Shown here one piece after another: positions 1 to 18,575 of a stretch of DNA of 22,410 nt. Below the pieces are notes generated by a model. The model was not told the origin of the DNA. It worked only from the letters and a program-made list of their open reading frames with translations, and did not search any database. The position numbers and the translations under genes were made by a program. This stretch comes from Anaerolineae bacterium (GTDB taxonomy: Bacteria > Chloroflexota > Anaerolineae > B4-G1 > DUEL01): contig JBDOIF010000154.1 in the NCBI GenBank assembly GCA_041082215.1, positions 62,001 through 84,410 of the forward strand, in the 5' to 3' direction. Each line of letters starts with the position of its first letter. Positions within the stretch are counted from its first letter, which is position 1.

Positions 1-433
1 TTGGCCGCAGGATTGTCTCCTGAGGGGTGTTCTCCTTCGGCGTCTCCGGCCCAAAGGCGGCGATGGAGCTGGGGCAGAAGACGCGCACCATTCCCCGCTC
101 CCGCGCCACCTCCAGGACGTTGTACAGGCCATTGATGTTGACATTCCAGGCCAGGTGGGGATTCTGTTCACCGGTGGCCGAGAGGATGGCGGCCATATGG
201 TAGACGGTGTCAATATCGTATCTGTCCACCACCGCCTCAATGGCCTCCCGCCGGGTCACGTCAATGAACTCAAACGGACCCGAGTCCCGCAGCGCCGGAG
301 GGGGCTGTGTCCTGTGGCCGGCAGCGACGACGTTCTCGCCCCCATATCGTTCCCGCAGCGCCAGGGTCAATTCCGAGCCGATCTGACCACAGGCACCGGT
401 GACAAGAATGCGCTTCATCTCACGTGTGGACAT
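1..433 (-). CDS. NAD-dependent epimerase/dehydratase family protein, SDR-type L-threonine 3-dehydrogenase-like (3' end runs off the window)
   Basis: Manual translation of the minus strand from ATG 433 (or 418): MSTREMKRILVTGACGQIGSELTLALRERYGGENVVAAG...YHMAAILSATGEQNPHLAWNVNINGLYNVLEVARERG...FCPSSIAAFGPETP. It has the GxxGxxG Rossmann motif and the HxAAILSA-GE and PSSIAAFG motifs of SDR threonine dehydrogenases. Not in the ORF track because it is truncated. Confidence 0.88.
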   Translation of the reverse strand, partial: MSTREMKRILVTGACGQIGSELTLALRERYGGENVVAAGHRTQPPPALRDSGPFEFIDVTRREAIEAVVDRYDIDTVYHMAAILSATGEQNPHLAWNVNINGLYNVLEVARERGMVRVFCPSSIAAFGPETPKENTPQETILRP

Positions 434-476
434 GGTCTCACTCCTTATTGCTAGCGACTTGTTGCTGGCTGCCTGC

Positions 477-1592
477 TCAGTGCTGGGGGCATCCCAACTG
501 CCCGCGCATCTGTCCTGCCTGCTCTGCCCATTCAGAGGGTGGGGAGAGGGCCAGGAAGTGGTCAAGGGCACTGCAAGCCTCCTCCCCCCGCCCCAGCATC
601 GCATATGCCTGCCCCAGCGCAAACCACGCCTCCGGCGAATCGGGCTCCTGCTCCAGCGCCTGATTCAGGGGATCCAGCGCGGCTGCCGGGTTCCCCTCAA
701 CCAGATGGAGGTTCCCCAGCCCGATGAGCGGCTCCGGCATGCCGGGGCATAGCTCCAGCGCTGCCTCGAACTCCGCCTGGGCCTTCCTCAACCCGTCGGC
801 GTCGGGCACGCCGACCGGCGTCTCGGGGAGCGCCCGGGCCAGATAGACTGCGCCGAGCTGGTAGTGGGAAAGGGGATCATCGGGGTCCCCCTCCACAGCC
901 GCCCGCAGGTCCTCCAGCGCGCGGTCCATATCCCCGAGCCGGTAGGCGACGGCGCCCCGGTTGTGGCGGGCCGCCACGTTATCGGGGTCCAGCCGAAGCA
1001 CGGCGTCGAACTCCTGAAGGGCCAGCTCCAGCCGGCCTTGCTCCGCATACATCTGCCCCAACCAGAAATGGGCCAGCCTGTGCTCGGGGTCCATCGTCAC
1101 CGCACTCTGGAAGGACTGGAGGGCCTGCTCAACCCGGCCCAGCTCGTAATAGGCCCGGCCGAGCCAGAAGTGGGCGTCGGCGTCGCCAGGAGTGGCTCGA
1201 GCGACGGATTCCAGCACAGAGAGCGCCTGATCCCGCGCTTCCCCGTCCCCCTTCCCGGCATAGACCTTGAGGAGCCAGAAGCGGCCCTCCGGCCCTCCCC
1301 GGCCTGCCGCCACCGCCGCCTCCAGGTCGGAAAGGACACGGGCAGCCCCCTCTCCATCTCCGCTGCGGCTGTGGGCCTCGTAGAGCCAGTAGTACGCTTC
1401 CACCAGGTCCGCATCCGCTGCCAGCGCCTTTTCCAGGTCGGCAATCGCCTCGGCGTACCGGTCCGCCCCGGAACAACTGCTGGCCTCCACAAGCCGCCGC
1501 CCGCTGCGCAACAGATCAACCCCGGTCCCCTCGGGGCGACAGGCGATCAGAAAGGTCAGAAGGGCTGCAAGGACAAACCACCGGCGTCCCAC
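477..1592 (-). CDS. Tetratricopeptide-repeat protein, probable lipoprotein
   Basis: 371-aa ORF with repeated TPR units (AHFWLGRAYYELGRVEQALQSFQSAVTMDP, AHFWLGQMYAEQG, AWFALGQAYAMLG). The N-terminus MGRRWFVLAALLTFLIAC looks like a signal peptide with a lipobox. Confidence 0.88.
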   Translation of the reverse strand: MGRRWFVLAALLTFLIACRPEGTGVDLLRSGRRLVEASSCSGADRYAEAIADLEKALAADADLVEAYYWLYEAHSRSGDGEGAARVLSDLEAAVAAGRGGPEGRFWLLKVYAGKGDGEARDQALSVLESVARATPGDADAHFWLGRAYYELGRVEQALQSFQSAVTMDPEHRLAHFWLGQMYAEQGRLELALQEFDAVLRLDPDNVAARHNRGAVAYRLGDMDRALEDLRAAVEGDPDDPLSHYQLGAVYLARALPETPVGVPDADGLRKAQAEFEAALELCPGMPEPLIGLGNLHLVEGNPAAALDPLNQALEQEPDSPEAWFALGQAYAMLGRGEEACSALDHFLALSPPSEWAEQAGQMRGQLGCPQH

Positions 1593-1601
1593 GTTTCCCT
1601 C

Positions 1602-2246
1602 CTATATCAGGCGAGGGGCCAGCACCACGATCTCCGTCTCCTCAGGCAGATGGCCCGGGCTGACCTTCAGGCTCTCTTTGGGCTCGATGTCCTCGATCCC
1701 CATCTCTTTGAGAAAGCGGTTCAGCGTCCCCAGCCGGATGTTCAGGCCGGGGAGCTTGTAGCGCATCGGGATGATGATGGAAGGTTCCAGCAGGCTGGCC
1801 ACCTCCGAGGCCTGGGCAGGCGTCAGTCCCCCATCGCCGCCCACAGGGACCAGCAACACGTCCACCGTGCCCAGCGCTTCGATCTGCGCCTGAGCAGGGA
1901 CGTGGCCCAGGTACCCCAGGTGGCATACGGTCAGGCCGTCGTAGTCGAAATGGAAGATCGTGTTGAGGCCGCGGGCTGCCCCCTTTTTCGCATCCGCATA
2001 AGTGGGGATAGCGGTGATAAAAACACCCCCGATCTCATATTCGCCGGGGGTATCCAGAACCCGAAAGGGGCCGCGCACGCCGCGGGTATAGTTACATTCC
2101 GGCGTGTCACAGCTAATCGTGACGATATCCGCCTTTGGACGGGGGAGGGTTAATCCCACGACGGGATCGTAGGGGTCAGTGACGACAGAGGCCATCCCAC
2201 GCTCTGCCAGCCGGAAACAGTTGAGGCCATACCAGGTGATCTCCAT
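1602..2246 (-). CDS. MBL-fold (beta-lactamase_B_3-type) protein with degenerate metal-binding motifs
   Basis: Likely start is ATG 2246 (MEITWYG), preceded by GGAGG. It contains TDPY, PGEYEIGGVFI, HLGxLGH, DVLLVPVGG and IIPMxY, typical of this family. The upstream part of the 1602..2396 ORF is just a translated palindrome. Confidence 0.82.
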   Translation of the reverse strand: MEITWYGLNCFRLAERGMASVVTDPYDPVVGLTLPRPKADIVTISCDTPECNYTRGVRGPFRVLDTPGEYEIGGVFITAIPTYADAKKGAARGLNTIFHFDYDGLTVCHLGYLGHVPAQAQIEALGTVDVLLVPVGGDGGLTPAQASEVASLLEPSIIIPMRYKLPGLNIRLGTLNRFLKEMGIEDIEPKESLKVSPGHLPEETEIVVLAPRLI

Positions 2247-2305
2247 AGGCCCTCCGTGCGTTGTTTGACTGTAACTGCCTACCCCAGGGGTTAATCGCTC
2301 CGCCT

Positions 2306-2385
2306 GGCCCTCACCCCACCCCCTGGCCCACTCCCCTCTCCCGCACGGCAGGAGAGGGGGGAGGGCAGGGGGTGGGGGGAGGGCC
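2306..2385. repeat. Roughly 80-bp imperfect palindrome (C-rich arm and G-rich arm), REP-like element
   Basis: Left arm ggccctcaccccaccccctggcccactcccctctcc (2306-2341) pairs with right arm ggagaggggggagggcagggggtggggggagggcc (2351-2385) around a 9-nt loop. Confidence 0.8.
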
Positions 2386-2422
2386 CAAACTATCACCAGG
2401 TAGGTAGTTACGTTTGATTTTG

Positions 2423-2451
2423 ATTATACCCGATTCAGCTTACAGCGCCAA
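2423..2451 (-). promoter_or_regulatory. Putative sigma70 promoter for the MBL/TPR/SDR genes
   Basis: Minus strand reads TTGGCG (2451-2446), 17 nt, TATAAT (2428-2423). Confidence 0.55.
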
Positions 2452-2572
2452 CATTCTGCTCCGCTGAGAACGCTGAGGATTCTCTGCGCCTCTATACCCC
2501 CGTTTGCGAACACTGGCGATCACTTTGTTGCTTACCTGCCAAACTGTTACAGACTCTCCCTCCGCAGTTTTA

Positions 2573-2601
2573 TTGACAGGCGCTCAAAAACATGCTATTT
2601 T
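2573..2601 (+). promoter_or_regulatory. Putative sigma70 promoter of the radical SAM operon
   Basis: TTGACA (2573-2578), 17 nt, TATTTT (2596-2601) with an extended -10 TGn. GAGGA RBS at 2636-2640 precedes GTG 2647. Confidence 0.7.
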
Positions 2602-2646
2602 ATTTTTGTAAGGGTTGGGTACCGATCGTCAACTTGAGGAATCAAA

Positions 2647-3999
2647 GTGTTTCTGGTTCCTGTTGCCGACCGCTTCTTATTCTACGCGCCTCTCGACAGC
2701 CTGATCGTCCTGATTGATCGTACTGCAGCACGGCAACTTCGCCGGTATCTCGACTGCCGACAACCGGTTACTCAGGGACCCCTCCAGGAGATCGTCCAGG
2801 CCCTTGATCCCGCGCGTGAGCTTCCTTTGCCCCGGCAGGGTGATTTTGTCCCCTCGTTTCTGGGCCTGTTGCCCACCCGGGGATGCAACCTGGCCTGCCG
2901 CTACTGTGGCTTCGCTGTAGGGGAGGAGCCTCAGCAGAGGATGAGCCTGGAACTGGCCCGTGATGCGGTGAACTGGTACCTCGACACCGTCCAGCGTGCC
3001 GGCGGGAAGCACGCTGAAATCCATTTCTTTGGCGGTGAACCCTTCTACGCCCCTGAGGTGGTTGACTTTGCTGTCCATCTGGGCCGTACCCGTGCCCGTG
3101 AGGCTGGCCTCACTGTCCGCTTCGAGGTCGCCACCAACGGCGTTTTCGACGAGAGACGCTGCCGCTGGATCGCCGACAACCTGGACGCGGTCGTTCTCTC
3201 GCTGGATGGGCCGCCCGATGTTCAGGCGTTGCACCGACCCTACAGGGACGGCCGCAGCAGCGCCGAGGTGGTCGAGCGGACGGCGGAGATGCTCTCCGAG
3301 GGGCCGGCTGCTCTCTATCTACGTGCATGCGTGACCGACGCTACGGTCGAGCGCATGCCGGAGATCGCCGCCTGGTTCTGCGAGCGGTTTCGCCCCGCCG
3401 GTGTTTGCTTCGAACCCCTGCAACCGCCGACGCCGCCCGCCAGGGCGCCTTTCGAGCCGCCCGATCCGTGGGCGTTCGGGCGTGCCTTTGTCCTGGCCGC
3501 CCGCATCCTGGAGGCTCATGGCATCGAGGCAGTCTATGCTGCCGCCGACATCCATACCCGGCGGACCAGCTTCTGTCCGGTGGGCCAGGATACCGCCATC
3601 GTCTCGCCCGATGGCACGATCAGCGCCTGCTACCTCCTGCCGCGGGACTGGGAAATGCGGGGCCTCGACCTGCGCCTGGGGCGTATAGCCGGGGGGCAGG
3701 TCCATCTGGACAGGGCGGCCGTCGCCGCTGCCCGCGCGCTGAATGTGTACAACAAACCCCACTGCGCCCGCTGCTTTTGCCGCTGGCACTGCGCGGGCGG
3801 CTGCCACGTCAACCACGGGCCAACTGGCCCCAACGGCGCCTACGACCGGCTCTGTATCCAGACGCGACTGATCGCGCTGCGCAACCTGCTCCAGGCCCTT
3901 GACCAGGAGCCCCTGTTTGACGCATGGCTCCAGGACCCATCAGCGGTCAAACGGGCTATCCTTCAGCCCTCCGACCGGCTGCTCGACGTCGAGGTGTGA
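2647..3999 (+). CDS. Radical SAM/SPASM domain peptide or protein maturase (paralog 1)
   Basis: CNLACRYC, FFGGEP, ATNG and LSLDG motifs. SPASM cysteines FCPVG...ISACY...CARCFCRWHCAGGC...LC. Roughly 65-aa N-terminal extension that may be an RRE. Confidence 0.92.
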   Translation: MFLVPVADRFLFYAPLDSLIVLIDRTAARQLRRYLDCRQPVTQGPLQEIVQALDPARELPLPRQGDFVPSFLGLLPTRGCNLACRYCGFAVGEEPQQRMSLELARDAVNWYLDTVQRAGGKHAEIHFFGGEPFYAPEVVDFAVHLGRTRAREAGLTVRFEVATNGVFDERRCRWIADNLDAVVLSLDGPPDVQALHRPYRDGRSSAEVVERTAEMLSEGPAALYLRACVTDATVERMPEIAAWFCERFRPAGVCFEPLQPPTPPARAPFEPPDPWAFGRAFVLAARILEAHGIEAVYAAADIHTRRTSFCPVGQDTAIVSPDGTISACYLLPRDWEMRGLDLRLGRIAGGQVHLDRAAVAAARALNVYNKPHCARCFCRWHCAGGCHVNHGPTGPNGAYDRLCIQTRLIALRNLLQALDQEPLFDAWLQDPSAVKRAILQPSDRLLDVEV

Positions 4000-4001
4000 G
4001 G

Positions 4002-4268
4002 TTGACCAGATACCGCTGTGTTCCATCGCTTGTCTGGGTTCAGGACGCCGGGCGGGTCCTGCTGGTGGACCAGGAGACGCTTCAGGCATGGACCCTGGAA
4101 GGAGCCGAGGCCGCGGCCTGGGACCTTCTGGCGTTGGGTTACCCGGCAGAGCGGGTTGTTGCGATGCTGGCGTTGCTCCTCGACGTGCCCGCCGGGCAGG
4201 CCGCTTCCTTTCTCGAAGGGAGATTGGCCGCCTGGCTTGAGGTCGGCATGCTGCAAGAGGGGAAATAA
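4002..4268 (+). CDS. Stand-alone PqqD-like / RiPP recognition element (RRE) protein
   Basis: 88 aa from TTG 4002 (GAGGTG RBS; alternative GTG 3996). Three short beta strands (LVWVQD, RVLLVD, AWTL) followed by EGAEAAAWDLL and helices ending WLEVGML, which is the PqqD winged-helix pattern. Confidence 0.72.
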   Translation: MTRYRCVPSLVWVQDAGRVLLVDQETLQAWTLEGAEAAAWDLLALGYPAERVVAMLALLLDVPAGQAASFLEGRLAAWLEVGMLQEGK

Positions 4269-4273
4269 TCTGA

Positions 4274-5290
4274 ATGGCAAACCTCGTCATCAGCGCCATT
4301 TGTAACCGTACCTGTGCCTATTGCTTCACCCGCGACCATTACGAGGATAACGGCGGTGGGGCAGTGTTCCTCGATCTGGATGGCTTTGAGGCCCGGCTGG
4401 ATTTCCTGGACCGCTCCGGCATTGACCAGGCGCGCCTGATCGGCGGCGAGCCAACCCTGCACCCTGACTTCCCCCTCCTGGTCGAGCGGGCCAGGGCGCG
4501 GGGCAAGACGGTGATCGTTTTCTCCAACGGTTTGATGCCTGAACCGGCCCTGGCCTGCCTGGAGGCGCTGCCCGGCGACGCCTGCAGCGTGCTTGTCAAT
4601 GTCAATGCGCCAGAGGATATGGGGGCCAGTACCTTCCAGCAGTTGTGCGCCACGCTCCGCCGCCTGGGCCAAAAGGCTACGCCGGGTCTGAATATCTACC
4701 GCGTGGACCTGGAGCTGGCTTTTCTTCTCAACCTCGTCGGCGAGACGGGCTGTCGGCCTGTCATCCGCCTGGGCCTGGCCCATCCCTGCCTCTCCGGCAG
4801 CAACCGCTTCGTCCGGCCACACCAGTACGTTGCCATCGGCAGGCGGATTGTCCACTTTGCCCGTCGCGCCGCCGGGGCTGGCATCAGAGTCGAGTTCGAC
4901 TGCGGCTTCGTCCCGTGCATGTTCTCCCCGCCCGACCTGGAGGCCCTTCGGGCGCTGGGCGCCAGTGCAGCCTGGAAGTGCAACCCTATTCTGGACATTG
5001 ACCTGGAGGGACGGGCCATCTACTGTTTCCCCCTCTCCCGTCTGGGCTACCTGCCGCTCACTCCCCAGGCCAATGCGGAAAAGCTGCGGCGGTCTTTCGA
5101 GGCCCGCGTCCAGCCCTACCGTCGGGCCGGCGTCTTTGTCGAGTGCTCAACCTGCCCCCTCAAGCGATCCGGGGAATGCCCGGGAGGCTGTCTTTCTGCA
5201 ACGGTCCGCCGCTTCCGCCACACGCCTTTCTGCGTTACAATATCGGATCAGGAGCTACAGGGTGAGCACCTGGGTCATTCCTTACATTGA
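4274..5290 (+). CDS. Radical SAM protein with C-terminal SPASM-like Cys cluster and no N-terminal RRE
   Basis: CNRTCAYC right at the N-terminus, IGGEPTLHP, FSNG, then FDCGFVPC and KCNPILDIDLEGRAIYCF...CSTCPLKRSGECPGGC. Confidence 0.9.
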   Translation: MANLVISAICNRTCAYCFTRDHYEDNGGGAVFLDLDGFEARLDFLDRSGIDQARLIGGEPTLHPDFPLLVERARARGKTVIVFSNGLMPEPALACLEALPGDACSVLVNVNAPEDMGASTFQQLCATLRRLGQKATPGLNIYRVDLELAFLLNLVGETGCRPVIRLGLAHPCLSGSNRFVRPHQYVAIGRRIVHFARRAAGAGIRVEFDCGFVPCMFSPPDLEALRALGASAAWKCNPILDIDLEGRAIYCFPLSRLGYLPLTPQANAEKLRRSFEARVQPYRRAGVFVECSTCPLKRSGECPGGCLSATVRRFRHTPFCVTISDQELQGEHLGHSLH

Positions 5291-6197
5291 TCAGACCCCC
5301 GCTTTCTGGGAGGAACTGGCGGAGCAGTTTGGCGCGCATATTAAGGAAGTTTATTTCCCTCCGCCTGCCGGAGCCTTCGCCACCGGGCGCAGCCCTCAGC
5401 CAGCCGAGCACCTGGAACAGTTCCTGCGTTATGCCCCGCTGCCCAAAGCTGTGCTCCTCAACCCGATCGTCCTGCCACGGCCGGCCAGGGAAATCGCCCC
5501 CGCTGTGCTTGCCTTGCTGGGGCAGTTGTATGAGATGTACGGCGTCTCGAGCGTTACGGTAACCGATCCCACCCTGGCCTGTTGCATCCGCGAGGCATAT
5601 CCCCACTTTCGCATCGCTGCCTCCGTCCTGATGCGCATTGCCCGACCGGCGCAGTTGCTGGCGATTGAAGCCTGTGTGGACGCCATCACCCCCGATAACG
5701 CGCTGGTCCGTGACCTGGCGGGGCTGCGGCAACTCCGCGCCGCTTTTTCGGGCGAGATCCGTCTGCTGGTCAACGAGGCCTGCCTGCCAGGCTGCCTTTA
5801 CCGGACCCAGCACTTTTACGAGATGGGCTATGGTGACTTTTTCGCCCAATCGCTCTGTCAGCCACTGCTGAGGGCCCACCCGTGGCTGCGCCTGACAGGG
5901 GCCTGGATTCTGCCGCGCCATCTGGTCTACTACGACGGCCTCTACGACACCCTCAAGCTCGCCGGCCGGGTCACCCTGCAGGACCCCCGGCGGTATCTGA
6001 CTGTACTGGGCGCCTACATCCGCCGCGAGCCGATCCTGCCGTGCGAAATCGGCGGCGGGCCGGCCTCATTGCTGGAGCCCATTGATATACCCGACGAACT
6101 CTTTACCTACATTCTGCACTGCGACAAGAACTGCCACGATTGTTCAGTCTGTCGTGACTATTACGATCTCGCAACTGCCGGTGGAGGAAAGCCATGA
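5262..6197 (+). CDS. Peptidase U32 family Fe-S protein (putative O2-independent hydroxylase/oxidase)
   Basis: Start GTG 5262 after CAGGAG. U32-like features: VLLN, VTVTDP, ASV, EIRLLVNEACLPGCLYR..H...C, WILP and LKLAGR (compare KIEGR). Extra C-terminal CDKNCHDCSVC. Confidence 0.72.
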   Translation: MSTWVIPYIDQTPAFWEELAEQFGAHIKEVYFPPPAGAFATGRSPQPAEHLEQFLRYAPLPKAVLLNPIVLPRPAREIAPAVLALLGQLYEMYGVSSVTVTDPTLACCIREAYPHFRIAASVLMRIARPAQLLAIEACVDAITPDNALVRDLAGLRQLRAAFSGEIRLLVNEACLPGCLYRTQHFYEMGYGDFFAQSLCQPLLRAHPWLRLTGAWILPRHLVYYDGLYDTLKLAGRVTLQDPRRYLTVLGAYIRREPILPCEIGGGPASLLEPIDIPDELFTYILHCDKNCHDCSVCRDYYDLATAGGGKP

Positions 6198-7075
6198 AAG
6201 AGAAAGAGTTAGAAGAGGGACCACTGGAGCAAGCGGAGGCCGAACCCCAGGTCTATGCCGTCAACAAAGATGCAAACGGCGCATGGAAGTTCAGCCGGCG
6301 GGACTTTTTGGCCCTGGCCGGGGGGGCTGTGGCAGCCCTCGTCGCCGGAGCAACACCCGGCTGCACCGGCCGGCAAGCGCCTGCCTCTACGCCGACCAGT
6401 GCACCTCCCCCCACTTCAACCAGCACCCCCACGAACACTCCGACTCAGACTCCCGTCAAGACCCCAACGCCCTCTCCCACTCCATTAGAGAAGGCAACCC
6501 CCACCCTGACCCCCACGCCGCAGACCCCCAGCGCCGCGTTCGTCGCCGATGTCACGATCCCCGATGGTACGGTGATGATGCCGGGCCAGTCCTTCACCAA
6601 AACCTGGCGGCTGGTCAATAACGGCGAGGTCAACTGGGGCGAGGGGACCCAGCTGGTCTTTTCCAGCGGCACCCAGATGGGTGGGGAAAGCCCTGTCCCC
6701 GTCCCCGACACTGCGCCTGGCCAGACGGTTGACATCAGCGTGGATATGGTAGCTCCGACGACGGTGGGCGACTATACCGGCAACTGGACGCTGGTTGCCG
6801 GAGACGGCACCAGGATGATCACCATCTACGTCAAGATCGCTGTTCGGCTGCCCGGCCAGCCTGGCGAGGTGCCAGCCGGCGAGACCGGCATCAATATGAC
6901 AGGGCCGGGCGGCGAGGTACGCCATCTACCCTGTGGCTCGCCCATTCCACCCGGCTGGACCTGCGTCTGCAACTGTGTGACCGTGCCTGCGCCCTGCTCC
7001 TGCGACACCGTCTGCACCTGCGTCGGCTACACTACCTGCACCTGCGACACAATCCATTACTGGTATCCGAACTGA
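6194..7075 (+). CDS. Putative modification substrate 1: Tat signal (possible lipoprotein), Pro/Thr linker, NBR1-Ig-like domain, Cys-rich tail ending HYWYPN
   Basis: FSRRDFL plus hydrophobic stretch plus TPGC (Cys57). PT-rich linker. FVADVTIPDGT..PGQSFTKTWRLVNNG..W..APGQTVDISVDMVAP..G.Y.G.W matches NBR1-Ig-like domains. Ten Cys in the last 47 aa. Confidence 0.85.
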   Translation: MKEKELEEGPLEQAEAEPQVYAVNKDANGAWKFSRRDFLALAGGAVAALVAGATPGCTGRQAPASTPTSAPPPTSTSTPTNTPTQTPVKTPTPSPTPLEKATPTLTPTPQTPSAAFVADVTIPDGTVMMPGQSFTKTWRLVNNGEVNWGEGTQLVFSSGTQMGGESPVPVPDTAPGQTVDISVDMVAPTTVGDYTGNWTLVAGDGTRMITIYVKIAVRLPGQPGEVPAGETGINMTGPGGEVRHLPCGSPIPPGWTCVCNCVTVPAPCSCDTVCTCVGYTTCTCDTIHYWYPN

Positions 7076-7078
7076 CGG

Positions 7079-8425
7079 ATGGAACTCTACCTCATCCCGG
7101 TACAGGATAAGTTCATCATCTACCGCCCCCTGCTGCGGCTGGCTTTCGTCGGCAACCGGGCGATGGCCGAGCTGGCAGCCGGGCTGGCCAAACGGCCCGT
7201 TCTCTCCGGAGACGGCCTGCCGGAGGAGGTGCGTACCTTTCTCGACGCGGTGGGCTTCCTGCAACCCGACCCACCGCCGCCTCCGCCTCCACCGTCGCCC
7301 TATTGTCCCAGCACTGCCGTGCTGTTGATGACCAACCGCTGCAACCTGCGCTGTACCTACTGCTACGCCAGCGGAGGAGAGGGGCCTGTCCAGGACCTTC
7401 CTCTTGAGCTGGCTCAAGCGGCGATTGACCAGGTCTGTGCCAACGCCGTCGAACAGAAACTGCCCCGATTTGAGCTGACATTCCACGGTGGCGGGGAGCC
7501 GGTCCAGGTATGGGAAGTGCTGCAGGCTGCCACGGCCTACGCCCGCAACAAGGAGCTGCCCTGCCGTACCGCCATCGTCAGCAACGGCGTCTGGACCGAC
7601 CGGCAGCGTGAGTGGATCCTTGAGAACATTGATGAGCTGAGCATCTCGTTCGACGGCCGGCCCCAGACCCAGGATCGTCAGCGGCCCTTCGCTTCCGGGC
7701 GCGGCTCCTCCCGGGCCGTGATGCGCACGCTCCAGGCGATGGACAAAGCTGGCTTTTCCTATGGCATTCGTATGACCGCGACCGCTCCCTGGCTGGAGAA
7801 CCTGCCGGAGGATGTCCGGTTCATCTGCGAAGAGACCGCCTGCCCGGCGATGCAGGTCGAGCCGGCCTTCAACACGGTGCGCGGGGTCCACCAGGGGCCT
7901 ACGGAGGAGGAGGGGGCGGCCTTTGTCGAGGCTTTTCTGGTTGCCTTTGACATCGCCCTCAGCGCAGGACGGCGGCTGAGTTACTCCGCTGCTCGACCCT
8001 GGCTGCTCACCCAGGCGTTCTGTACCGCCCCCTACGCTGCCCTCGTCGTCAACGCTGCCGGGCGGCTGGTGAGCTGTTACGAAGTCACCAGTGAAACCCA
8101 TCCTCTGGCGGCGCTGTCAACCATTGGCCGCGTGGAGGATGGTCGGGTGGCGATTGACCACAGCGCCCACCGCGCTCTGGTTGACCACATTGAGGCCCAT
8201 CGCGCTACCTGCCGCGATTGCTTCTGCTACTGGCACTGTGCCGGCGACTGTTACACCCGTACCTACTATGCCCAGGCAAGCGCAGGCACAGGTGCCAACC
8301 CGCGCTGCCGGATCAACCGCGAGATCACGGCCGGCATGCTGCTGCGTTACATTATGGCGGGCGACGGCGTCTGGCGCGGGCAGGATATCTATGCGCAGGA
8401 AGCTCATCTGATCAAAACGTTCTAG
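7079..8425 (+). CDS. Radical SAM/SPASM domain peptide or protein maturase (paralog 2)
   Basis: CNLRCTYC, FHGGGEP, VSNG and ISFDG motifs. FCTAP...LVSCY...CRDCFCYWHCAGDC...RC. The N-terminal RRE-like region is joined by a poly-Pro linker. Confidence 0.92.
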   Translation: MELYLIPVQDKFIIYRPLLRLAFVGNRAMAELAAGLAKRPVLSGDGLPEEVRTFLDAVGFLQPDPPPPPPPPSPYCPSTAVLLMTNRCNLRCTYCYASGGEGPVQDLPLELAQAAIDQVCANAVEQKLPRFELTFHGGGEPVQVWEVLQAATAYARNKELPCRTAIVSNGVWTDRQREWILENIDELSISFDGRPQTQDRQRPFASGRGSSRAVMRTLQAMDKAGFSYGIRMTATAPWLENLPEDVRFICEETACPAMQVEPAFNTVRGVHQGPTEEEGAAFVEAFLVAFDIALSAGRRLSYSAARPWLLTQAFCTAPYAALVVNAAGRLVSCYEVTSETHPLAALSTIGRVEDGRVAIDHSAHRALVDHIEAHRATCRDCFCYWHCAGDCYTRTYYAQASAGTGANPRCRINREITAGMLLRYIMAGDGVWRGQDIYAQEAHLIKTF

Positions 8426-8449
8426 CCCCCCAGGCAAAGAGGAGGAGAG

Positions 8450-9436
8450 ATGGCAGAGGAGAAGTCACCCCTCGATCTTCCAGAGGAGCAACCCGACGAG
8501 GAGGCGCCCCAGGTCTACAGCATCAAGAAGGAGGGCGATGGATGGAAGTTCAGCCGCCGCGAATTCCTCATCGCCGCTGCCACCGCCGCGGCCACAGCGA
8601 CAGGCGCGGCGATGCACGCCCTTCGCCGCTCTCAGGACACAGCGGAGCCGGACGCGGAAAGCGCAGAACTGATCCATCTGGAAATGGCTATACCGGCTAT
8701 GATGCTCGTCAGCCCTGGCCAAACTTTTGTCCAGGTCTGGACATTTACTAACAGGAGCGATAAGAGCCGATGCCACGGAGCCAGGCTACGCCTCCTGGGT
8801 ATTGACGAGATGAAGGCCCCGGCTATGCTGGACATCCCCGAGATCGGCCCGGGCGAGACCGTTGAGGTTCCGGTCGAAATGACCGCGCCCGCGGGCAAGG
8901 ATGCCTACCGCGCTGCCTGGAGCCTGGAGGCAGACGAGGGCACGCCGCCTCTTGCCAGTGGCCCTTTTGTCGTGCTGTCAACCTGCATCGCCGAATCGCC
9001 TCACCCCTACCCGAATTCCTACAATAACACCTGGACGGTCACCAATCCCGACACCGAAGCCGAGCGCACCCGCGTCCATTTCTCGCAACTGGAAGTTGAA
9101 ACCAACTGGGACTATGTGTATCTCAAAGATGAGAGCGGACAGGTCCACCAGACCATCACCGGCTACTACTCTTCCGGCCTGTGGTCGGTCCCTATCCCCG
9201 GCCGCGTTGTCCAGGTCCAACTGACCTCGGATTCGACCGTTCAGGCCTGGGGCTTTTGTCTCGATCAGATCCAGACCATCCGTGGCATCTGCTACCTCCC
9301 CATCATCCGTCGCGAGCCCACGCCCACGCCCACGCGTACGCCCACACCAACGCCCACACCGTGTAAATGCTATGGGGTCTGCACCTGCAACCCGCACTGC
9401 ACCTGCGATCTGATCCACTACTGGTACCCGAACTGA
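8450..9436 (+). CDS. Putative modification substrate 2: Tat signal, NBR1-Ig-like domain, CUB-like domain, YLPII motif, PT linker, Cys-rich tail ending HYWYPN
   Basis: GAGGAGG RBS. FSRREFL plus Ala-rich h-region. PGQTFVQVWTFTN...IGPGETVEVPVEMTAP...Y.A.W is Ig-like. ESPHPYPNS..WT...VHFSQLEVETNWDYV...LTSDSTVQAWGF is CUB-like. Ends CKCYGVCTCNPHCTCDLIHYWYPN. Confidence 0.85.
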   Translation: MAEEKSPLDLPEEQPDEEAPQVYSIKKEGDGWKFSRREFLIAAATAAATATGAAMHALRRSQDTAEPDAESAELIHLEMAIPAMMLVSPGQTFVQVWTFTNRSDKSRCHGARLRLLGIDEMKAPAMLDIPEIGPGETVEVPVEMTAPAGKDAYRAAWSLEADEGTPPLASGPFVVLSTCIAESPHPYPNSYNNTWTVTNPDTEAERTRVHFSQLEVETNWDYVYLKDESGQVHQTITGYYSSGLWSVPIPGRVVQVQLTSDSTVQAWGFCLDQIQTIRGICYLPIIRREPTPTPTRTPTPTPTPCKCYGVCTCNPHCTCDLIHYWYPN

Positions 9437-10269
9437 TGAAAATCAGGAGCGACCTGGTCGTTATCTCCTGGTGGTCCAATTGCCTGGGCCTGGCCTCCCT
9501 GCACGCCCTGGCGGAGCATGCGCCGGGCCGGGAAATCTATGTCGTTCAGGTGGGCAAACCGGAGGAAAGCAAAGCGCGCTTTCGCGCCCATCTACCTCCC
9601 GGCATCCGGGAATTGCCTTACCCTCCCGATGGCTCCGGGGAGGACTGGCGTGTCCGTGAGGCTGTCGCCCGTGTCCTCCTGCGCGACCGGGCCGGGCTGT
9701 GGTTTATTGACCACGACCTGATCGTTCAGGAGGATTGTACGGCCTGGCTGGATGATATGGACCGCCGGCTGGGGCAAAGCGATGTCTGCCTCTGCCATCC
9801 CGCCCCTTTGCGCGGCCCCTCCATTACCAACCCGGCCTTCTGGCTCTCCCCGGTCCGCTTCCCGCCTGACCTGCCCAGCTTTGCCCGCGTGCCGTACCGT
9901 GAGGACCCCGTCGCCAGCCGGCCTTATGCGCTGCGCCAGTCAGCCGGCCTGATGATGCCGGGCAAGGATACCCTTGTCGTGGCGATGGAATTCCTGCGCG
10001 AGCGGGGCATGACCTGCGGCTTCCCCCTGAGCGTGCAGGATCAAACGCCCGATGGGCCACCTCCCTTCCCGCGGTTTGAACACCTGGGCGGCCTGTACAC
10101 GTTTACCGGAGAGGTGCGGGCGGAACAGCCCTTACCCTTGCGCGACTGGATGGTCCGTTGCGTCGAGCAGTTCTCCGCCTTCTATGCCGCCTGCCCGCCG
10201 GCCTGGATCCGGGATGAGGACCCCGTCCTCTTACAGCGGATTGAAGAATTCCGGCAGGCTCTGTTATGA
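9436..10269 (+). CDS. Hypothetical protein, possibly a GT-A-fold glycosyltransferase
   Basis: ATG 9436 overlaps the previous stop (TGATG). N-terminal beta-alpha-beta pattern (LVVISWWS...IYVVQVG) and hydrophobic strand plus DxD (LWFIDHD) at about residue 92, as in GT2-like enzymes. The CDS is well supported; the product is tentative. Confidence 0.6.
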   Translation: MKIRSDLVVISWWSNCLGLASLHALAEHAPGREIYVVQVGKPEESKARFRAHLPPGIRELPYPPDGSGEDWRVREAVARVLLRDRAGLWFIDHDLIVQEDCTAWLDDMDRRLGQSDVCLCHPAPLRGPSITNPAFWLSPVRFPPDLPSFARVPYREDPVASRPYALRQSAGLMMPGKDTLVVAMEFLRERGMTCGFPLSVQDQTPDGPPPFPRFEHLGGLYTFTGEVRAEQPLPLRDWMVRCVEQFSAFYAACPPAWIRDEDPVLLQRIEEFRQALL

Positions 10270-10730
10270 CTCCGTTGAAGAGGCGCGACAAACCTTCTTT
10301 TGACCGGGGGCGGCGGGCCTTTCTGCTCGCTATGTTGCAGGAACTGCCCGTCCTTCATGGTACGCTCAAGGGCGGACAGGGCTTCCGCCTGACCGACCTT
10401 TCTGCTCTGCCCGATCAGCAACTGGCCCGTATTCGCCCCATCGTCAACCCCGACTATGTCATCCTGGTCCAGGACGGCGCTGTCTGGGCCCGCTACCGGC
10501 ACAGGCAGGAGCCGCCCATTCGCCTCTTTGGGACGGACGAGGAGGAAAAGCAGCGGACGTTCAACCTGTTCGATGGCCGACATACCCTGGGTGAGATCGG
10601 CTCACAGCTTGCCCAGGCCCTGGGCGAGGACGAGGCCACGGCCTTTTCCCGCGCCAGGGACCTCTTCCTGGACCTCGTCCGCCATATGGTCTGCGTCCCG
10701 CGGGACCCCCTGGGCCCGCCGGAGGGGTAG
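10266..10730 (+). CDS. Hypothetical protein with C-terminal PqqD/RRE-like winged helix and N-terminal RRxFL motif
   Basis: ATGA overlap with the previous gene. FNLFDGRHTLGEIGSQLAQALG...ARDLFLDLVRHMVC matches the PqqD-type DGxxTxxEI...F+xxLxxxG+ pattern. Confidence 0.65.
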   Translation: MTPLKRRDKPSFDRGRRAFLLAMLQELPVLHGTLKGGQGFRLTDLSALPDQQLARIRPIVNPDYVILVQDGAVWARYRHRQEPPIRLFGTDEEEKQRTFNLFDGRHTLGEIGSQLAQALGEDEATAFSRARDLFLDLVRHMVCVPRDPLGPPEG

Positions 10731-12080
10731 ATGGCCGACCAGGGCATGCACTTCCGGGCTGTGCGTGCAGGGGGGATGCCGATCCAGCGCCGGGACGGTC
10801 CGGCGTACGCCCTCTTTTATGCCCCTGGCTATGTTTGCGTGGTTGATCGAGCGGAAGCCGACCGTTTCGCAGAGCAGATCGGCCCCACCGCCCCTGCCCC
10901 CGAGGCAAGGGAGCTGTGGCAGCGTGCCGAGGCCGCCGTCGTCGCTGCGCAGCGGCAACAGGAGGAGCCTTTCCGCCCTGAATGCCTGACGCTCTACCTG
11001 AACAACGAGTGCGCCCTGCACTGCCGCTACTGCTATGCTACCCCATCCGCTGGTCCGGCTACACGTCTGGGGGAAGAGGCCATCGTGGCGGCGGCCGAAC
11101 TGGTTGCGGCGAACTGCCGCCAGAAGGGGTTGCCCCTCCACGTTGTCTTTCACGGCGGCGGCGAGCCGACCCTTCACCTGGAGCGTGTGGAATCGGTCCT
11201 GGCTCGCCTCGAGGCGGTCGCCACGCGCCACGGAGTGGGTCAGTTCCGCTACATTGCCACCGGCGGTGTCCTGTCGGAGCGGGCGGCCGTCTGGCTGGCT
11301 CGCCGTTTCGACCTGATCGGCCTCTCCTGCGACGGTCCGCCCGAAATCCAGAACGCCCAGCGGCCCCGGCACGACGGCCGTGGCACAGCGCACATCGTCG
11401 AGCGGACGGCCCGCATCCTCCACGCCGAGGGCCGCCGCTTCCACGTCCGGGCGACGATCACGGCACAGACGCTGCACCGTCAGGCCGAGATCGCCGCCTA
11501 CCTCTGTCAGGAGCTCCGCCCGGCGGCGATCCACTTTGAGCCGGCCTATCGCGGCGGACGGGCCGCCGAACTCGAACCCGACCAGGCCGCCAGCTTCGTG
11601 GCGCACTTCCTGGAGGCCCAGAAGCTGGCGCAGGGTTATGGCGTCCCCCTCTCCTTTTCAGGCAGCCGCCCTGGCGAAGTGCACGGTCCCTACTGCCACG
11701 TCTTTCGTCAGGTGCTCAACCTGGTTCCTGGCGGCGTGGCGACCGCCTGCTTTAAGATCACCCGGGCCGAAGATGCACGGGAACGGGGCCTGGCGATCGG
11801 TGCCTGGAGGGAAAACGGTTGCTTTGACCTGGACATCGCCCGCGTGGACGGATTGCGCCAGCGCCTCGGTATGCTTCCCGGCGCTTGCGCTGAGTGCTTC
11901 AATCGCTACCACTGTGCCCGGGCCTGTCCGGACCATTGCCCGCTGGACAGTCCGGCCGGGGGGATTGAGGGCTTTCGCTGCCGCGTGCAGCGCTGGCTGA
12001 CCGAGGCGGTCATAGAAAGGACTGCCCGGCGTCTTTGGGCTGAGAGAGGCCAGCGGAGGATCTATGCAGGCTCGCTTTGA
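10731..12080 (+). CDS. Radical SAM/SPASM domain peptide or protein maturase (paralog 3)
   Basis: CALHCRYC, FHGGGEPT and LSCDG motifs. YCHVF...ATACF...CAECFNRYHCARACPDHC...RC. The start may be ATG 10746. Confidence 0.9.
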   Translation: MADQGMHFRAVRAGGMPIQRRDGPAYALFYAPGYVCVVDRAEADRFAEQIGPTAPAPEARELWQRAEAAVVAAQRQQEEPFRPECLTLYLNNECALHCRYCYATPSAGPATRLGEEAIVAAAELVAANCRQKGLPLHVVFHGGGEPTLHLERVESVLARLEAVATRHGVGQFRYIATGGVLSERAAVWLARRFDLIGLSCDGPPEIQNAQRPRHDGRGTAHIVERTARILHAEGRRFHVRATITAQTLHRQAEIAAYLCQELRPAAIHFEPAYRGGRAAELEPDQAASFVAHFLEAQKLAQGYGVPLSFSGSRPGEVHGPYCHVFRQVLNLVPGGVATACFKITRAEDARERGLAIGAWRENGCFDLDIARVDGLRQRLGMLPGACAECFNRYHCARACPDHCPLDSPAGGIEGFRCRVQRWLTEAVIERTARRLWAERGQRRIYAGSL

Positions 12081-13407
12081 GCTTTTCTTCCGCGATGCCC
12101 CGGCGGAAGTTGACCCTGCGGCGATCAAGCGCGAATGGGCCTCCCTCACACCCGATTATCCGATCGAGGCGCGACACCTGCCCCTGCCTGTTTGGGCCCG
12201 CCGCGGCCTGACCGACGACGGCCCCCGGGCCTGGTCCACCTTGAGCCAGGATGTCCGCAGCATGGACGAAAAGCGCGCCTTCTGCATCTATGTTCACATC
12301 CCCTTCTGCTCCAGCCGCTGCGCCTTTTGTGATTGCTACGCCTTCCCCCTGCGGCGGCTGCGCGAGCAGCATATCGAGGGCTACATTGACCTGCTGATCC
12401 AGGAGGCTCAACTGTGGAGCCGCCTGGGCACCCTTGCCCGGCGGCCTGTCTCCACGGTGCATCTTGGCGGTGGCACGCCCACCTTCATCCGGCCGGCCGC
12501 ACTGCGCCGCCTGGTGCAGGCTTTGCAGGCACGCTTTGCCTGTGGGCCGGAGACGGAGTGGGCGCTGGAATCTTCCTCCAGCGAGCTGGATGAGGAGATG
12601 CTCGATGCCCTCGACGAGCTGGGCTTTACCCGGCTCCACGTTGGTGTGCAGAGCCTGGAGGACAACGTGCGCCGGACCATCGGACGGCGCGAGCAAGCAG
12701 CAGAGGTGCTGACCAGAATCGAACGGGCGGTGGCCCGTGGCTGGATTGTCAGTGTGGACCTGATCGTCGGCCTGCCAGGGCAGACGCTGACCGGCGCGCT
12801 GGCGGATGTGTGTGCCCTGGAGGCCGTCGGCGTGGATGGCTTTTCCGTTTATGAACTCCAGCTCTCTTCACGCAACCGACGCTTTGCCGAGGCCCACGGG
12901 CTGCTGGAGCGAGATCGCCTGGAGAACTACTGGCTGCTTCAGGCCGTCTCCCGCCTTCTCATCGCGCGGGGCTATAAGAAGACCCTCTTCAATCACTTCG
13001 CCCGCCACCGCGATACCAACCTCTATTTCACCTTTCCAGAACGGGGGGAGGATTGCCTGGCCCTGGGGACCATCGCCGATGGGGTCTGGGGCGATTACCA
13101 TTACCGCCACCCCGAGTATGCGGACTACTGCCGCAGCGTCAGCCCGTCTTTCCCCGGCCTGCAGGGGGGGATGCGCCGCACGCCGCTGGAGAGCCGTCTG
13201 TTCCGGCTGGAGACGGCCCTTCTCTCGGCCCGCTTCGAACAGGCTCTGTTCAGCGAGGTCCTGGGCGACGAGCGTGCCGGGCAGTTGTTCAGGCGCTGGC
13301 AGGATGCGGCGCTGATCGCTCAGGACCCGTCAACCGGCCGTTTTCACCTCACCGGCAACGGCTCCTGGTTCGTCGCCCAGATGATGGCTGAGCTGGCATT
13401 CCTGTAA
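12064..13407 (+). CDS. HemN-like (class C / HutW-ChuW-like) radical SAM enzyme, putative methyltransferase
   Basis: [35 protein letters not shown] and [11 protein letters not shown] are coproporphyrinogen III oxidase family motifs, followed by a C-terminal LTGNG helix region. Confidence 0.88.
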
Positions 13408-13836
13408 ATAGTCCAGCAGCGCCACAAGGCCGAGCAGGTAGCTGCGCCAGCCGAAACCGCCGATAAAGCCCACACAGACCGGTGCGATCAGCGAGCGACG
13501 GCGGAACGGCTCGCGGGCGTAGATGTTGCTGAGGTGTACCTCCACAGTGGGCAGCCCCACCGCGGCGATGGCATCGCGCAGGGCCACGCTGGTATGGGCA
13601 TAGCCGCCCGGGTTGATCAGCACGCCGTCGGCCCAGCCCATCGCCTGGTGCAATATGTCAATGAGCGCCCCCTCCCCATTGGCCTGGAGTATCCGCAGCA
13701 CAGCGCCTCGCTCTGCCGCCAGCGACTGCAGCGCCGTATTGATCTCCGCCAGCGTCACCCGCCCATAGACCTGCGGCTCTCGCTGCCCCAGCAGGTTGAG
13801 ATTGGGCCCATGGAGAACAAGAATCTTGCAATGCAT
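13330..13836 (-). CDS. aroQ: Type II 3-dehydroquinate dehydratase
   Basis: [38 protein letters not shown] and [17 protein letters not shown]. Start is coupled to the aroE stop (TGATG). Confidence 0.96.
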
Positions 13837-18496: not shown

Positions 18497-18575
18497 CGCC
18501 TCTCCCTGGGTTGCCTGACTATGTAGCGCAGGCCGCCAGGCCTGTTTCTCGCAGGCTGACAGCCCGCGCCGCTGC

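Follow-up and report, generated by a model that had tools for sequence, protein, structure and literature searches.

Enzymatic radical cross-linking of whole proteins is, to our knowledge, documented in very few cases, quinohemoprotein amine dehydrogenase (QHNDH) and CrpA. The radical S-adenosylmethionine (rSAM) enzyme QhpD forms three Cys-to-Asp/Glu thioethers in QhpC and requires the 28-residue leader of QhpC, all steps being cytoplasmic (PMC7876137; here and below, statements cited by PMC number refer to the available excerpts of those papers). In Methanococcus voltae, CrpC, a SPASM enzyme with a recognition element (RRE) of the type found in pathways for peptides synthesized by ribosomes and modified after translation (RiPP pathways), matches TIGR04463 and puts ranthionine links into CrpA, a Cys-rich protein of 28.8 kDa which has a 47-residue N-terminal region in common with CrpB (PMC13692751, September 2026). 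The locus described here lies in a stretch of 22,410 nt from an Anaerolineae bacterium (contig JBDOIF010000154.1; hereafter the window, whose positions serve as coordinates) and centres on a gene, substrate 1, whose product ends in a Cys-rich tail. Judging from sequence, the system appears to work like QHNDH and Crp but belongs to neither family. The tail, which is paired with an N-terminal tag on hundreds of exported bacterial proteins encoded beside a constant set of rSAM enzymes, is very probably cross-linked before export by a previously undescribed maturation system. We consider it probable that the tail is the core of a RiPP-like precursor which is itself a full-size protein exported by the twin-arginine translocation (Tat) pathway, most likely with Cys thioether cross-links. 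The assignment of the tail as a core appears well supported, and thioether chemistry is plausible by analogy. The analysis draws on conservation, the coupling of leader and tail, gene linkage, the family of the enzymes and a model of leader binding; from these we infer thioether chemistry, a division of labour between the enzymes, and export after modification.

Substrate 1 is composed, in order, of an acidic N-terminus, a leader motif, the sequence SRRDFL, an Ala-rich stretch running to ..PGC, a Pro/Thr linker, an NBR1-type Ig domain and the tail. The translation of its open reading frame (ORF) ends with HLPCGSPIPPGWTCVCNCVTVPAPCSCDTVCTCVGYTTCTCDTIHYWYPN, followed by a TGA stop codon; the last 47 residues are CGSPIPPGWTCVCNCVTVPAPCSCDTVCTCVGYTTCTCDTIHYWYPN. 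The features of the gene are as follows (AF2, AlphaFold2; pLDDT, predicted local distance difference test).

6194..7075, + strand: substrate 1 gene, 293 aa, with leader/Tat signal, Pro/Thr linker, NBR1-Ig domain and Cys-rich tail.
6245..6364, + strand: leader motif PQVYAVNKDANGAWKF, followed by twin-arginine SRRDFL, Ala-rich h-region and lipobox-like ..PGC, in all residues 18–57 (from conservation; lipobox by eye).
6554..6844, + strand: NBR1-type Ig-like passenger, residues 121–217 (PF16158, E 1.7e-26; AF2 pLDDT >90).
6863..6979, + strand: anchor module GEVPAGETGINMTGPGGEVRHLPCGSPIPPGWTCVCNCV, residues 224–262, the most conserved tail columns (AF2 beta strands, pLDDT 73–87).
6932..7075, + strand: stretch from Cys247 (TGT, 6932–6934) to the stop codon (TGA, 7073–7075).
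6980..7054, + strand: three CxC units, CSCDTV, CTCVGY(TT) and CTCDTI, residues 263–287 (AF2 pLDDT <45, no fold alone).
7055..7072, + strand: terminal motif HYWYPN, with Y289, W290 and P292 invariant and H288 at least 90% conserved.

Ten of the 11 cysteines of substrate 1 are found in its last 47 residues (Cys247 alone, then CVCNC, CSC, CTC and CTC). By a hypergeometric calculation, at least 10 of 11 would fall within the last 48 of 293 residues with a probability of 5.7e-8. P246, C247, P252, C257, C259, C261, Y289, W290 and P292 are invariant across 45 aligned homologues, which indicates that the reading frame is real. The initial annotation had given the coordinates and residue string of the stretch from Cys247, with ten cysteines mostly as CxC and the HYWYPN end, and the ORF translation agrees with it exactly. 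It had also proposed that this stretch is a core region receiving iterative thioether cross-links. The substrate and core part of this proposal is supported by gene linkage, by the relatives of the enzymes, which form thioethers, and by the model of the leader complex, while the thioether part depends on distant homology. According to conservation, the functional unit appears wider than the stretch from Cys247: it includes a C-terminal module starting at about residue 224 (nt 6863) and an N-terminal partner motif at nt 6245–6310. Three features lay outside the earlier reading: the leader is within the Tat signal, the two tags are modular and found on different passengers, and HYWYPN probably has enzymes of its own.

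Among the 45 homologues, the leader positions W31, F33, R35 and R36 are invariant, and P18, V23, G29 and C57 are conserved in at least 90%, giving the short consensus P[QE]V[YF]AV...W.F-SRRDFL. In all full-length members, of whichever phylum and passenger, an acidic stretch is followed by P-(Q/E)-(V/I)-(Y/F)-(A/S)-(V/I/L)-x-(K/R)-x4-W-x-(F/L)-(S/T)-R-R-x-F-L. Of 80 open frames, 65 fit a regular expression for the leader; the others are mostly cut by contig ends or runs of N, or were mis-anchored. Substrate 1 scores 19.2 bits with the Tat signal model TIGR01409, above the cut-off of 16.7, and the RR pair is invariant; its matches to PF10518 and PF10399 are below cut-off. It is predicted to be exported via Tat.

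The leader and the tail travel together: of 120 NBR1 homologues, 48 combine the two and 56 lack both. The other 16 proteins, which are discordant, comprise 11 N-terminally truncated fragments, one miss of the regular expression and four proteins which are C-terminally truncated or variant. Between the two tags, the relatives from the lineage of the window carry an NBR1-Ig, LysM or SH3 domain. In other loci the passengers are WD40 propellers (10 of the 12 proteins tested) or a ConA-like domain (one of the 12). Minimal members of 130–215 aa (P0255, P0144, P0133, P0158 and others) are composed of the leader/Tat signal, a low-complexity linker, the anchor, CxC units and HYWYPN, with no passenger, which suggests that the tail is the product and not an appendage. 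The family thus ranges from 130 aa to an open frame of 1272 codons. One locus (L060, positions 1–10198) holds seven tandem head-to-tail paralogues, each with leader, WD40 propeller and tail, followed by a HemN-like gene.

The consensus of the tail is R.LPCGSPIPxG..CxCNCV, then C[ST]C[DN/V]x[V/H] units, whose number varies from 1 to 7 per tail in the relatives, then HYW[YH]P[N/C]; the anchor alone reads ..G.T.T(L/M)PCGSPIPxG(W/A)(T/V)CxCNCV. When a profile built from 26 tails was searched against 1.84 billion representatives, 623 representative clusters passed E<=1e-3 and 161 passed E<=1e-10, and 124 of the 146 newly found proteins listed from this search have one anchor and a terminal YW.P. 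motif. Half of the best 120 homologues of substrate 1 (60/120) terminate in [HC]YW[YH]P[CN]. The motif formed by Y289, W290 and P292 is always at the extreme C-terminus. In 128 distinct tails with (H)YW(Y/H)P, the residue which comes next is N in 87, C in 36, T in three, and S and D in one each.

The earlier remark that Asp/Asn and Ser/Thr accompany the CxC pairs is true of the whole family: the middle residue is Ser or Thr in 319 of 384 units, and the residue after CxC is D, N, E or Q in 402 of the 699 units of 248 distinct tails, and Val-like in 287. The largest class is C[ST]C-(D/N/E/Q)-x-(V/I), with 279 of the 699 units, followed by C[ST]C-V-x-(H/Y/N/D/F/Q), with 246; in the remainder, both positions are polar (113), both +1 and +3 are Val-like (34), or the pattern is mixed (27). 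In the AF2 model of substrate 1 (45 homologues), the passenger and the anchor are folded and residues 261–293 have no confident fold, as would be expected of a peptide-like core. In some proteins (P0123, P0124, P0126 and P0125), two or three tandem copies of the anchor, of about 45 residues each, stand ahead of one set of CxC units; the anchor thus behaves like an independent small domain.

The tail resembles nothing in the databases searched. Scans of the whole substrates gave no Pfam or NCBIfam match on it, and four isolated tails matched no Pfam family at E<=10, metallothioneins included, a result limited by HMMER filters, which may hide very weak matches. Against all PDB chains, the tail profile returned two chance-level matches only (E 0.26 and 0.86), and no QhpC, methylamine dehydrogenase (MADH) light chain or metallothionein at E<=10. 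The strings HYWYPN, CGSPIP, HYWYP, YWYPC and HYWHP led to no relevant paper in the searchable literature, which leaves the supplements of PMC13692751 and PMC10288494 outside the search; CNCV gave unrelated uses only among the matches listed. Keyword searches (radical SAM/SPASM/WD40/twin-arginine, and ranthipeptide/Chloroflexi/Cys-rich/lipoprotein) found nothing on the present system, and PMC7159879 deals with different rSAM systems. A haem c-like C-x-C-x-x-H reading was rejected, since the largest class of units (279/699) has no His and the number of units varies, and so was, by eye, a C-terminal sorting signal of the sortase or exosortase type, the tail having no hydrophobic helix.

Substrate 1 belongs to a cassette of ten proteins, encoded by a tightly packed run on the + strand in which the genes overlap or are separated by a few bases. 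The other nine are the following.

2647..3999, + strand: rSAM_A, rSAM/SPASM-type, 450 aa (PapB 112 bits, SCIFF maturase 111.1, nif11 rSAM 109.5, all under cut-off).
4274..5290, + strand: rSAM_B, small rSAM enzyme, 338 aa (family scans).
5262..6197, + strand: U32-like TIM-barrel protein, 311 aa, GTG start (PF01136, E 0.005, below cut-off).
7079..8425, + strand: rSAM_C, rSAM/SPASM maturase, starting 3 nt past the stop codon of substrate 1.
8450..9436, + strand: substrate 2, 328 aa; leader as in substrate 1, NBR1-like domain plus one extra domain, and at nt 9362–9433 the tail CKCYGVCTCNPHCTCDLIHYWYPN, no anchor module.
9439..10269, + strand: unk276, 276 aa, no Pfam/NCBIfam family, weak glycosyltransferase-2 lead.
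10266..10730, + strand: unk154, 154 aa, probably a PqqD-like recognition protein (protein-atlas lead; precedes rSAM_D).
10731..12080, + strand: rSAM_D, rSAM/SPASM-type, 449 aa (PapB 67.9 bits, AmcB 62.5, QhpD 57.7).
12064..13407, + strand: HemN/ChuW-like rSAM enzyme, 447 aa (TIGR04107, 210.7 bits vs cut-off 400).

The best NCBIfam matches of rSAM_A, rSAM_C and rSAM_D are PapB, the SCIFF maturase, QhpD and the nif11 maturase, all far below the curated cut-offs. The scores for PapB, SCIFF and QhpD are 112, 111.1 and 84.5 bits for rSAM_A, 102.8, 88.1 and 81.6 for rSAM_C, and 67.9, 48.6 and 57.7 for rSAM_D; none of the three enzymes reaches these equivalogs (NF047865, TIGR03974 and TIGR03906, with cut-offs of 340, 425 and 453). 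The nearest solved structure to rSAM_C is that of the thioether synthase CteB (5wgg; E 2.8e-16 with the single sequence and 1e-29 with a profile), then SkfB. In rSAM_C, which matches PF04055, the CxxxCxxC cysteines C88, C92 and C95 are invariant in 39 homologues. C315, C333, C378, C381, C387, C391 and C410 are also invariant and align with the SPASM region of CteB; we take these seven to be the 7-Cys SPASM pattern predicted to bind two auxiliary clusters. Homologues of the three enzymes are annotated in the sources merely as "radical SAM protein" or "uncharacterized protein".

The AF2 model of the U32-like protein has a pLDDT of 88.5; among PDB folds it comes closest to that of the U32 peptidase Mk0906 (5d88, E 1.2e-8, TM-score 0.55/0.67), with other TIM barrels close behind. 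Its sequence gives chance matches only against the PDB and misses the gathering score of PF01136 (16.6 vs 22.4 bits, residues 87–132 only); C174, C178, C199, C287, C291, C294 and C297 are invariant. The sequence of rSAM_B has only weak PDB matches (E ~1e-3). The HemN-like enzyme, nearest to ChuW/HutW, is below the cut-offs of TIGR04107 (210.7 vs 400) and TIGR00538 (125.7 vs 325), and on these scores is classed as a relative and not a member of the ChuW/HutW or HemN families. The lead on unk154 comes from PqqD clusters in the protein atlas (score 0.86, 178 shared features).

Substrates 1 and 2 have the N-terminal motif in common, and likewise the end C.C..VCTC...CTCD.IHYWYPN; both contain an NBR1-like domain, with 29% identity. 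The extra domain of substrate 2 (residues ~170–280, window 8957–9290, ESPHPYPNSYNNTWTV...NWDYVYLKDESGQ...) looks CUB-like by eye and has no Pfam match at E<=0.01. The listed ORF of unk276 starts at 9367 and overlaps substrate 2; the ATG at 9439, directly past the stop codon of substrate 2, is the likelier start. The atlas lead of unk276 to glycosyltransferase family 2 is weak (32% of one cluster), and a D-H-D is visible by eye; if this lead is real, the tail might also be glycosylated.

To see how the cassette is kept, a pattern scan was made of one reference genome per species; it gave 72 loci, in which the ten proteins of the window were compared with the six-frame ORFs of the stored flanks. 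A homologue of rSAM_A, C or D lies within the flanks of 67 of the 72 loci, and 51 have at least three rSAM classes. As best matches, rSAM_A was found in 47 loci, rSAM_B in 40, the U32-like protein in 17, rSAM_C in 64, unk276 in 10, unk154 in 40, rSAM_D in 41 and the HemN-like enzyme in 42; these counts are lower bounds, since many loci end at contig ends. The remaining five loci, in which no SPASM homologue was found, are L035 (a 2.6-kb contig), L038, L042, L059 and L060, the last being filled by its seven tandem substrates. The gene order is largely preserved, and the usual cassette contains three SPASM enzymes, a small rSAM enzyme with the U32-like protein, the PqqD-like protein and the HemN-like rSAM enzyme. 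The loci come from about ten phyla in all, with Chloroflexota, Acidobacteriota, Verrucomicrobiota, Planctomycetota, Nitrospira, Desulfobacterales, Gammaproteobacteria, Armatimonadota, Acidimicrobiales and Hyphomicrobiales among the taxa; L044 comes from Flexilinea flocculi TC1, the only strain in culture. Some of the genes are fused: rSAM_B to the U32-like protein in nine loci, rSAM_D to the HemN-like enzyme in seven, and unk276 to rSAM_A in L006. The loci bearing fusions are L028, L030, L041, L050, L051, L053, L055, L067 and L071, also L046 and L006. We know of no described enzyme in which an rSAM protein is fused to a U32 protein.

Chorismate mutase produces prephenate, the oxygen donor of U32-type hydroxylases, and the cassette of the window is directly followed, at 13330–19859 on the - strand, by a complete set of shikimate-pathway genes: aroQ, aroE, a bifunctional DAHP synthase/chorismate mutase, aroK-aroB, aroC and aroA. 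That these genes feed prephenate to the U32-like protein was rejected as a conserved feature: homologues of the six are absent from all 72 loci, so that their adjacency looks coincidental. On the other side of the cassette, the best sigma-70-like site (2573–2601; TTGACA, 17 nt, TATTTT with TG) lies 46 nt before rSAM_A, in the only stretch of low GC (0.58), and is probably the start of the operon. Further upstream, at 477–2396 on the - strand, are a TPR-repeat protein and a 264-aa ORF, neither of which was seen as a conserved neighbour; the ORF has no NCBIfam match at E<=1e-10 and, by eye, the look of a hydrolase with a metallo-beta-lactamase fold. Over the whole window, Rfam gave no family at gathering score, and a terminator scan was at the level of shuffled sequences (7 found vs a mean of 6.7).

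A structural model links the leader to a maturase. The complex of rSAM_C (39-row alignment) with residues 1–60 of substrate 1 (45-row alignment) was modelled in three runs, together with three controls, and reached an interface score (ipSAE) of 0.82, the best control scoring 0.00. Of 157 solved complexes, 116 reach the mark used for ipSAE, as do 2 of 215 mismatched pairs; these figures hold only roughly for the present case, since our own alignments were used. The three runs have at least 77% of contacts in common, with a partner pLDDT of at least 58. Substrate residues 15–25, which form the PQVYAV strand, contact residues 8–11, 23–32 and 48–54 of rSAM_C, in its N-terminal domain, and residues 422–430. 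The model supports the idea that the N-terminal recognition (RRE) domain of rSAM_C would bind the leader of the substrate. Complexes of an RRE with a leader have been solved, for instance CteB with CteA, so that the score may reflect the likeness of the model to such complexes.

The aromatic end of the tail is not present in all loci, and its absence is informative about the enzymes. According to a regular expression, 11 of the 72 loci match the anchor but have no ORF with a terminal YW.P. motif. Among these, L043 has the end ..YRYPN, together with rSAM_A, B and D. The other ten (L054, L057, L058, L062–L064, L068–L070 and L072), from at least four phyla, have the anchor (PCGSPIPxGAVCTCNCV) with CxC units, typically C[ST]C[ND]K[IV]CTC[IV]PV, and a related but distinct leader, FEL.RV..DG...EPEI ... 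RRGFLG. They contain an enzyme of the rSAM_C type only (232–289 bits) and no other member of the cassette; the other members are found in 57 of 61 loci with the terminal motif and in 0 of 10 without it. This suggests that the other enzymes act on the aromatic end: most likely, the rSAM_C type would serve the anchor and CxC units, and rSAM_A, rSAM_B with the U32-like protein, the PqqD-like protein, rSAM_D and the HemN-like enzyme would serve the HYWYP end. In L064 and L068, a Peptidase_S74 chaperone/autocleavage domain follows the Cys region (PF13884, E ~3e-10; two of four proteins tested), which hints at trimer formation and a self-cleaved C-terminus.

The following sequence of events can be proposed. 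The substrate would be made in the cytoplasm, where the SPASM maturases would hold, through their N-terminal recognition domain, the P-Q-V-Y-A-V hairpin in the n-region of the twin-arginine signal, probably with the participation of the PqqD-like protein. The unfolded C-terminal Cys units would be fed into the active sites, and the Cys sulfurs joined to carbons of nearby residues, so that the thioether rings form a ladder. The likeliest acceptors, if QhpD, PapB, NxxcB and CteB are a guide, would be Asp/Asn after CxC or Ser/Thr inside it, although other residues may be used. The rSAM_C type would most likely modify the anchor and the CxC units, and rSAM_A, rSAM_B with the U32-like protein, and the PqqD-like protein with rSAM_D and the HemN-like enzyme would most likely remodel the HYWYP(N/C) end. 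The finished protein would then leave via Tat and lose the signal together with the leader; in the lineage of the window, this cleavage probably leaves a lipid-anchored Cys. Removal of the leader with the signal peptide would explain why the cassette has neither a protease nor an exporter. As with the Tat proofreading chaperones, an n-region held by the maturase would delay export until maturation ends.

Several observations weigh against a thioether-bearing core. Besides thioethers, SPASM enzymes can make C-C or C-O links, epimerise residues or oxidise Cys, and the proposed chemistry rests on distant homology, since no NCBIfam equivalog is reached; families which form cyclophanes score nearly as well (AmcB, 62.5 bits, for rSAM_D). 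After CxC, a Val-like residue stands in place of D/N/E/Q in 287 of 699 units (41%). In 246 of these 287 units, the +3 position is polar (H, Y, N or D), and a CxC with His or Asp also fits a metal site. The last residue of the tail alternates between Asn (87) and Cys (36) in the 128 tails, which a simple scheme of donors and acceptors leaves unexplained. Five enzymes are more than a thioether ladder needs, which weakens the case, as does the fact that the association behind the division of labour concerns ten loci only, with kinship not controlled. The positions close to the active site of CteB are F112, F152, T186, S210, H363 and Q364 (PMC10288494). According to our own reading of the alignment, they correspond to Y96, H136, V167, S190, Y334 and E335 of rSAM_C, only one being identical.

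In line with the metal-binding tail which the initial annotation named as an alternative, one could instead see in the tail a metallothionein-like region or a scaffold for a metal or iron–sulfur site, whose free thiolates ligate Cu, Zn, Fe or a cluster; Tat would export the loaded, folded protein and the rSAM enzymes would modify another part of the tail or help to build the cluster. The units have Asp/Asn at +1 or His/Tyr/Asn/Asp at +3, with Val-like residues at both positions in only 34 of 699 (27 being mixed), CxC spacings of 6 or 8 residues recall metallothioneins, the apo tail has no AF2 fold, and Tat, whose signal is present, typically carries cofactor-loaded proteins. Metal binding alone needs no enzymes, yet SPASM rSAM genes adjoin the tail in 67 of 72 loci and the leader of the substrate is modelled on the maturase. 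A variable number of units (1–7) does not fit one defined cluster, the ten proteins of the cassette include no metal transporter or metallochaperone in Pfam and NCBIfam scans, and the four tails gave no metallothionein or other Pfam match at E<=10, within the limits of the HMMER filters. We therefore regard metal ligation in place of cross-linking as improbable. The two are compatible, and the authors of the CrpA study also suspect a metal role for cross-linked CrpA (PMC13692751). A tail acting as an ordinary disulfide-rich or oligomerising extracellular stalk, with disulfides formed after export and the rSAM enzymes acting on another substrate, seems very unlikely. It would agree with a Tat signal on an exported protein and with the Peptidase_S74 domain which follows the Cys region in the sister group (PF13884, two of four tested), a domain which assists trimer folding in phage fibres. 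But the leader is coupled to the tail and modelled on the maturase, the cassette has no other candidate substrate gene, and Tat exports folded proteins from a reducing cytoplasm, in which disulfides are not yet present.

It is also conceivable, at a rather low probability, that HYWYP(N/C) is the business end of the tail: its Tyr and Trp would become a protein-bound aromatic cross-link or a quinone-type redox cofactor, and the Cys units would form a cross-linked cage, as in the gamma subunit of QHNDH. The makers would be rSAM_A, the PqqD-like protein with rSAM_D and the HemN-like enzyme, and rSAM_B together with the U32-like protein, the latter serving as an O2-independent hydroxylase. This can coexist with a thioether-linked core. 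The invariant Y289, W290 and P292 stand at the extreme C-terminus in every case, the extra enzymes follow the motif (57 of 61 loci with it, 0 of 10 without), and the PqqD-like lead precedes an SPASM rSAM enzyme, as in the synthesis of pyrroloquinoline quinone (PQQ) and mycofactocin, which both involve Tyr. A U32 fold is suggested, and U32 proteins are O2-independent hydroxylases using prephenate (PMC10990095, PMC6599085, PMC5727448, PMC6747719). Outside the lineage of the window, 10 of the 12 passengers tested are propellers, and QHNDH pairs a propeller subunit with a small Cys/Trp subunit (PMC7876137). Against this, the tail has no sequence similarity to solved chains, the small subunits of QHNDH and MADH included, and the U32-like protein is present in only 17 of 72 loci, so that hydroxylation by it is not general; the shikimate/chorismate mutase neighbours are kept in 0 of 72. 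With an Ig-like binding passenger in the window and none in the minimal members, the active site of a dehydrogenase is hard to picture.

A more speculative extension, to which we give a small chance, is that the hairpin and the tail make up a portable two-part tag which builds a new protein-bound prosthetic group on Tat-exported proteins of many phyla. The Cys ladder, caged by thioethers made by rSAM_C, might then be combined with a Tyr-Trp-Tyr end cross-linked, hydroxylated and/or methylated by the four further rSAM enzymes, the PqqD-like protein and, where present, a fused rSAM-U32 protein acting as an O2-independent hydroxylase, an assembly that we hold to be unlikely. The outcome, equally doubtful, could be a redox-active or metal-binding end group, an O2-independent counterpart of the tryptophylquinone subunits, carried on propellers, lectin-like domains or a lipid anchor alone.

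The thioether-linked core that we favour can be set against the known systems. As in QHNDH, a Cys-rich protein, and not a small peptide, would be cross-linked in the cytoplasm by an SPASM rSAM enzyme, with an N-terminal leader for binding of the enzyme, export, and a conserved Trp near the Cys; the beta-propeller is a separate subunit in QHNDH and a fused passenger in many relatives here (PMC7876137). The tail is dissimilar to solved chains, and the cut-off of QhpD is missed (81.6 vs 453 for rSAM_C). Pfam and NCBIfam scans of the ten cassette proteins found no QhpE protease, QhpF ABC exporter or QhpG flavoprotein/monooxygenase. Here, the leader lies within the Tat signal, five rSAM enzymes replace one, and the Cys units are repeated in variable number. 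Crp likewise involves a full-size Cys-rich protein, a leader-like region common to two paralogous substrates (as in substrates 1 and 2), C-terminal Cys repeats poorly predicted by structure models, and an RRE-SPASM rSAM enzyme. It differs in that rSAM_A, C and D score 39.8, 47.3 and 29.0 bits against the TIGR04463 cut-off of 525, and in that the CrpA repeat is of 17 residues with C-x-x-Q/D and not a CxC hexad; Crp is archaeal and has one rSAM enzyme and not five, and the available excerpt reports no Tat signal (PMC13692751).

By profile and solved structure, the closest relatives of the enzymes belong to the SCIFF/CteB, freyrasin (PapB) and SkfB systems, which also have an N-terminal leader and a C-terminal Cys-rich core. 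The precursors of these ranthipeptides and sactipeptides are short (well below 100 aa), with a dedicated protease or exporter, whereas those of the present family reach from 130 aa to above 1200 aa and have a folded passenger set between the tags. PQQ (PqqA/D/E) and mycofactocin (MftA/B/C) syntheses also combine a PqqD-type protein and an SPASM rSAM enzyme acting on aromatic residues near the C-terminus, but they release small cofactors, of which there is no hint here, and MftC scores 27.1 bits vs 265 for rSAM_D. Tat chaperones of the TorD/DmsD type are cytoplasmic proteins which hold a Tat signal until maturation is done; in our model, the holder would be the recognition domain of the enzyme itself, on the n-region hairpin, and there is no homology with these chaperones. 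Metallothioneins have the dense CxC pairs with small residues between them, but no family match was found, and the present units stand between a conserved anchor and an aromatic end and are linked to rSAM enzymes.

In RODEO-based mining, precursor genes of more than 600 bp were counted as false positives and dropped (PMC10288494), a blind spot in RiPP mining which may explain why the system went unnoticed. Chemistry beyond simple thioethers is suggested by the cassette of five enzymes, by the fusions of rSAM enzymes with U32-like and HemN-like proteins, and by the invariant HYWYP end. The pair of tags, found on unrelated passengers and alone, could become a genetically encodable tag for stapling or for a cofactor. 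With 623 representative clusters, and loci from about ten phyla, the system would add a large and phylogenetically broad family to the enzymatic cross-linking of whole proteins, and a recognition sequence placed inside the Tat signal would couple modification to export, with no need for a dedicated protease or transporter.

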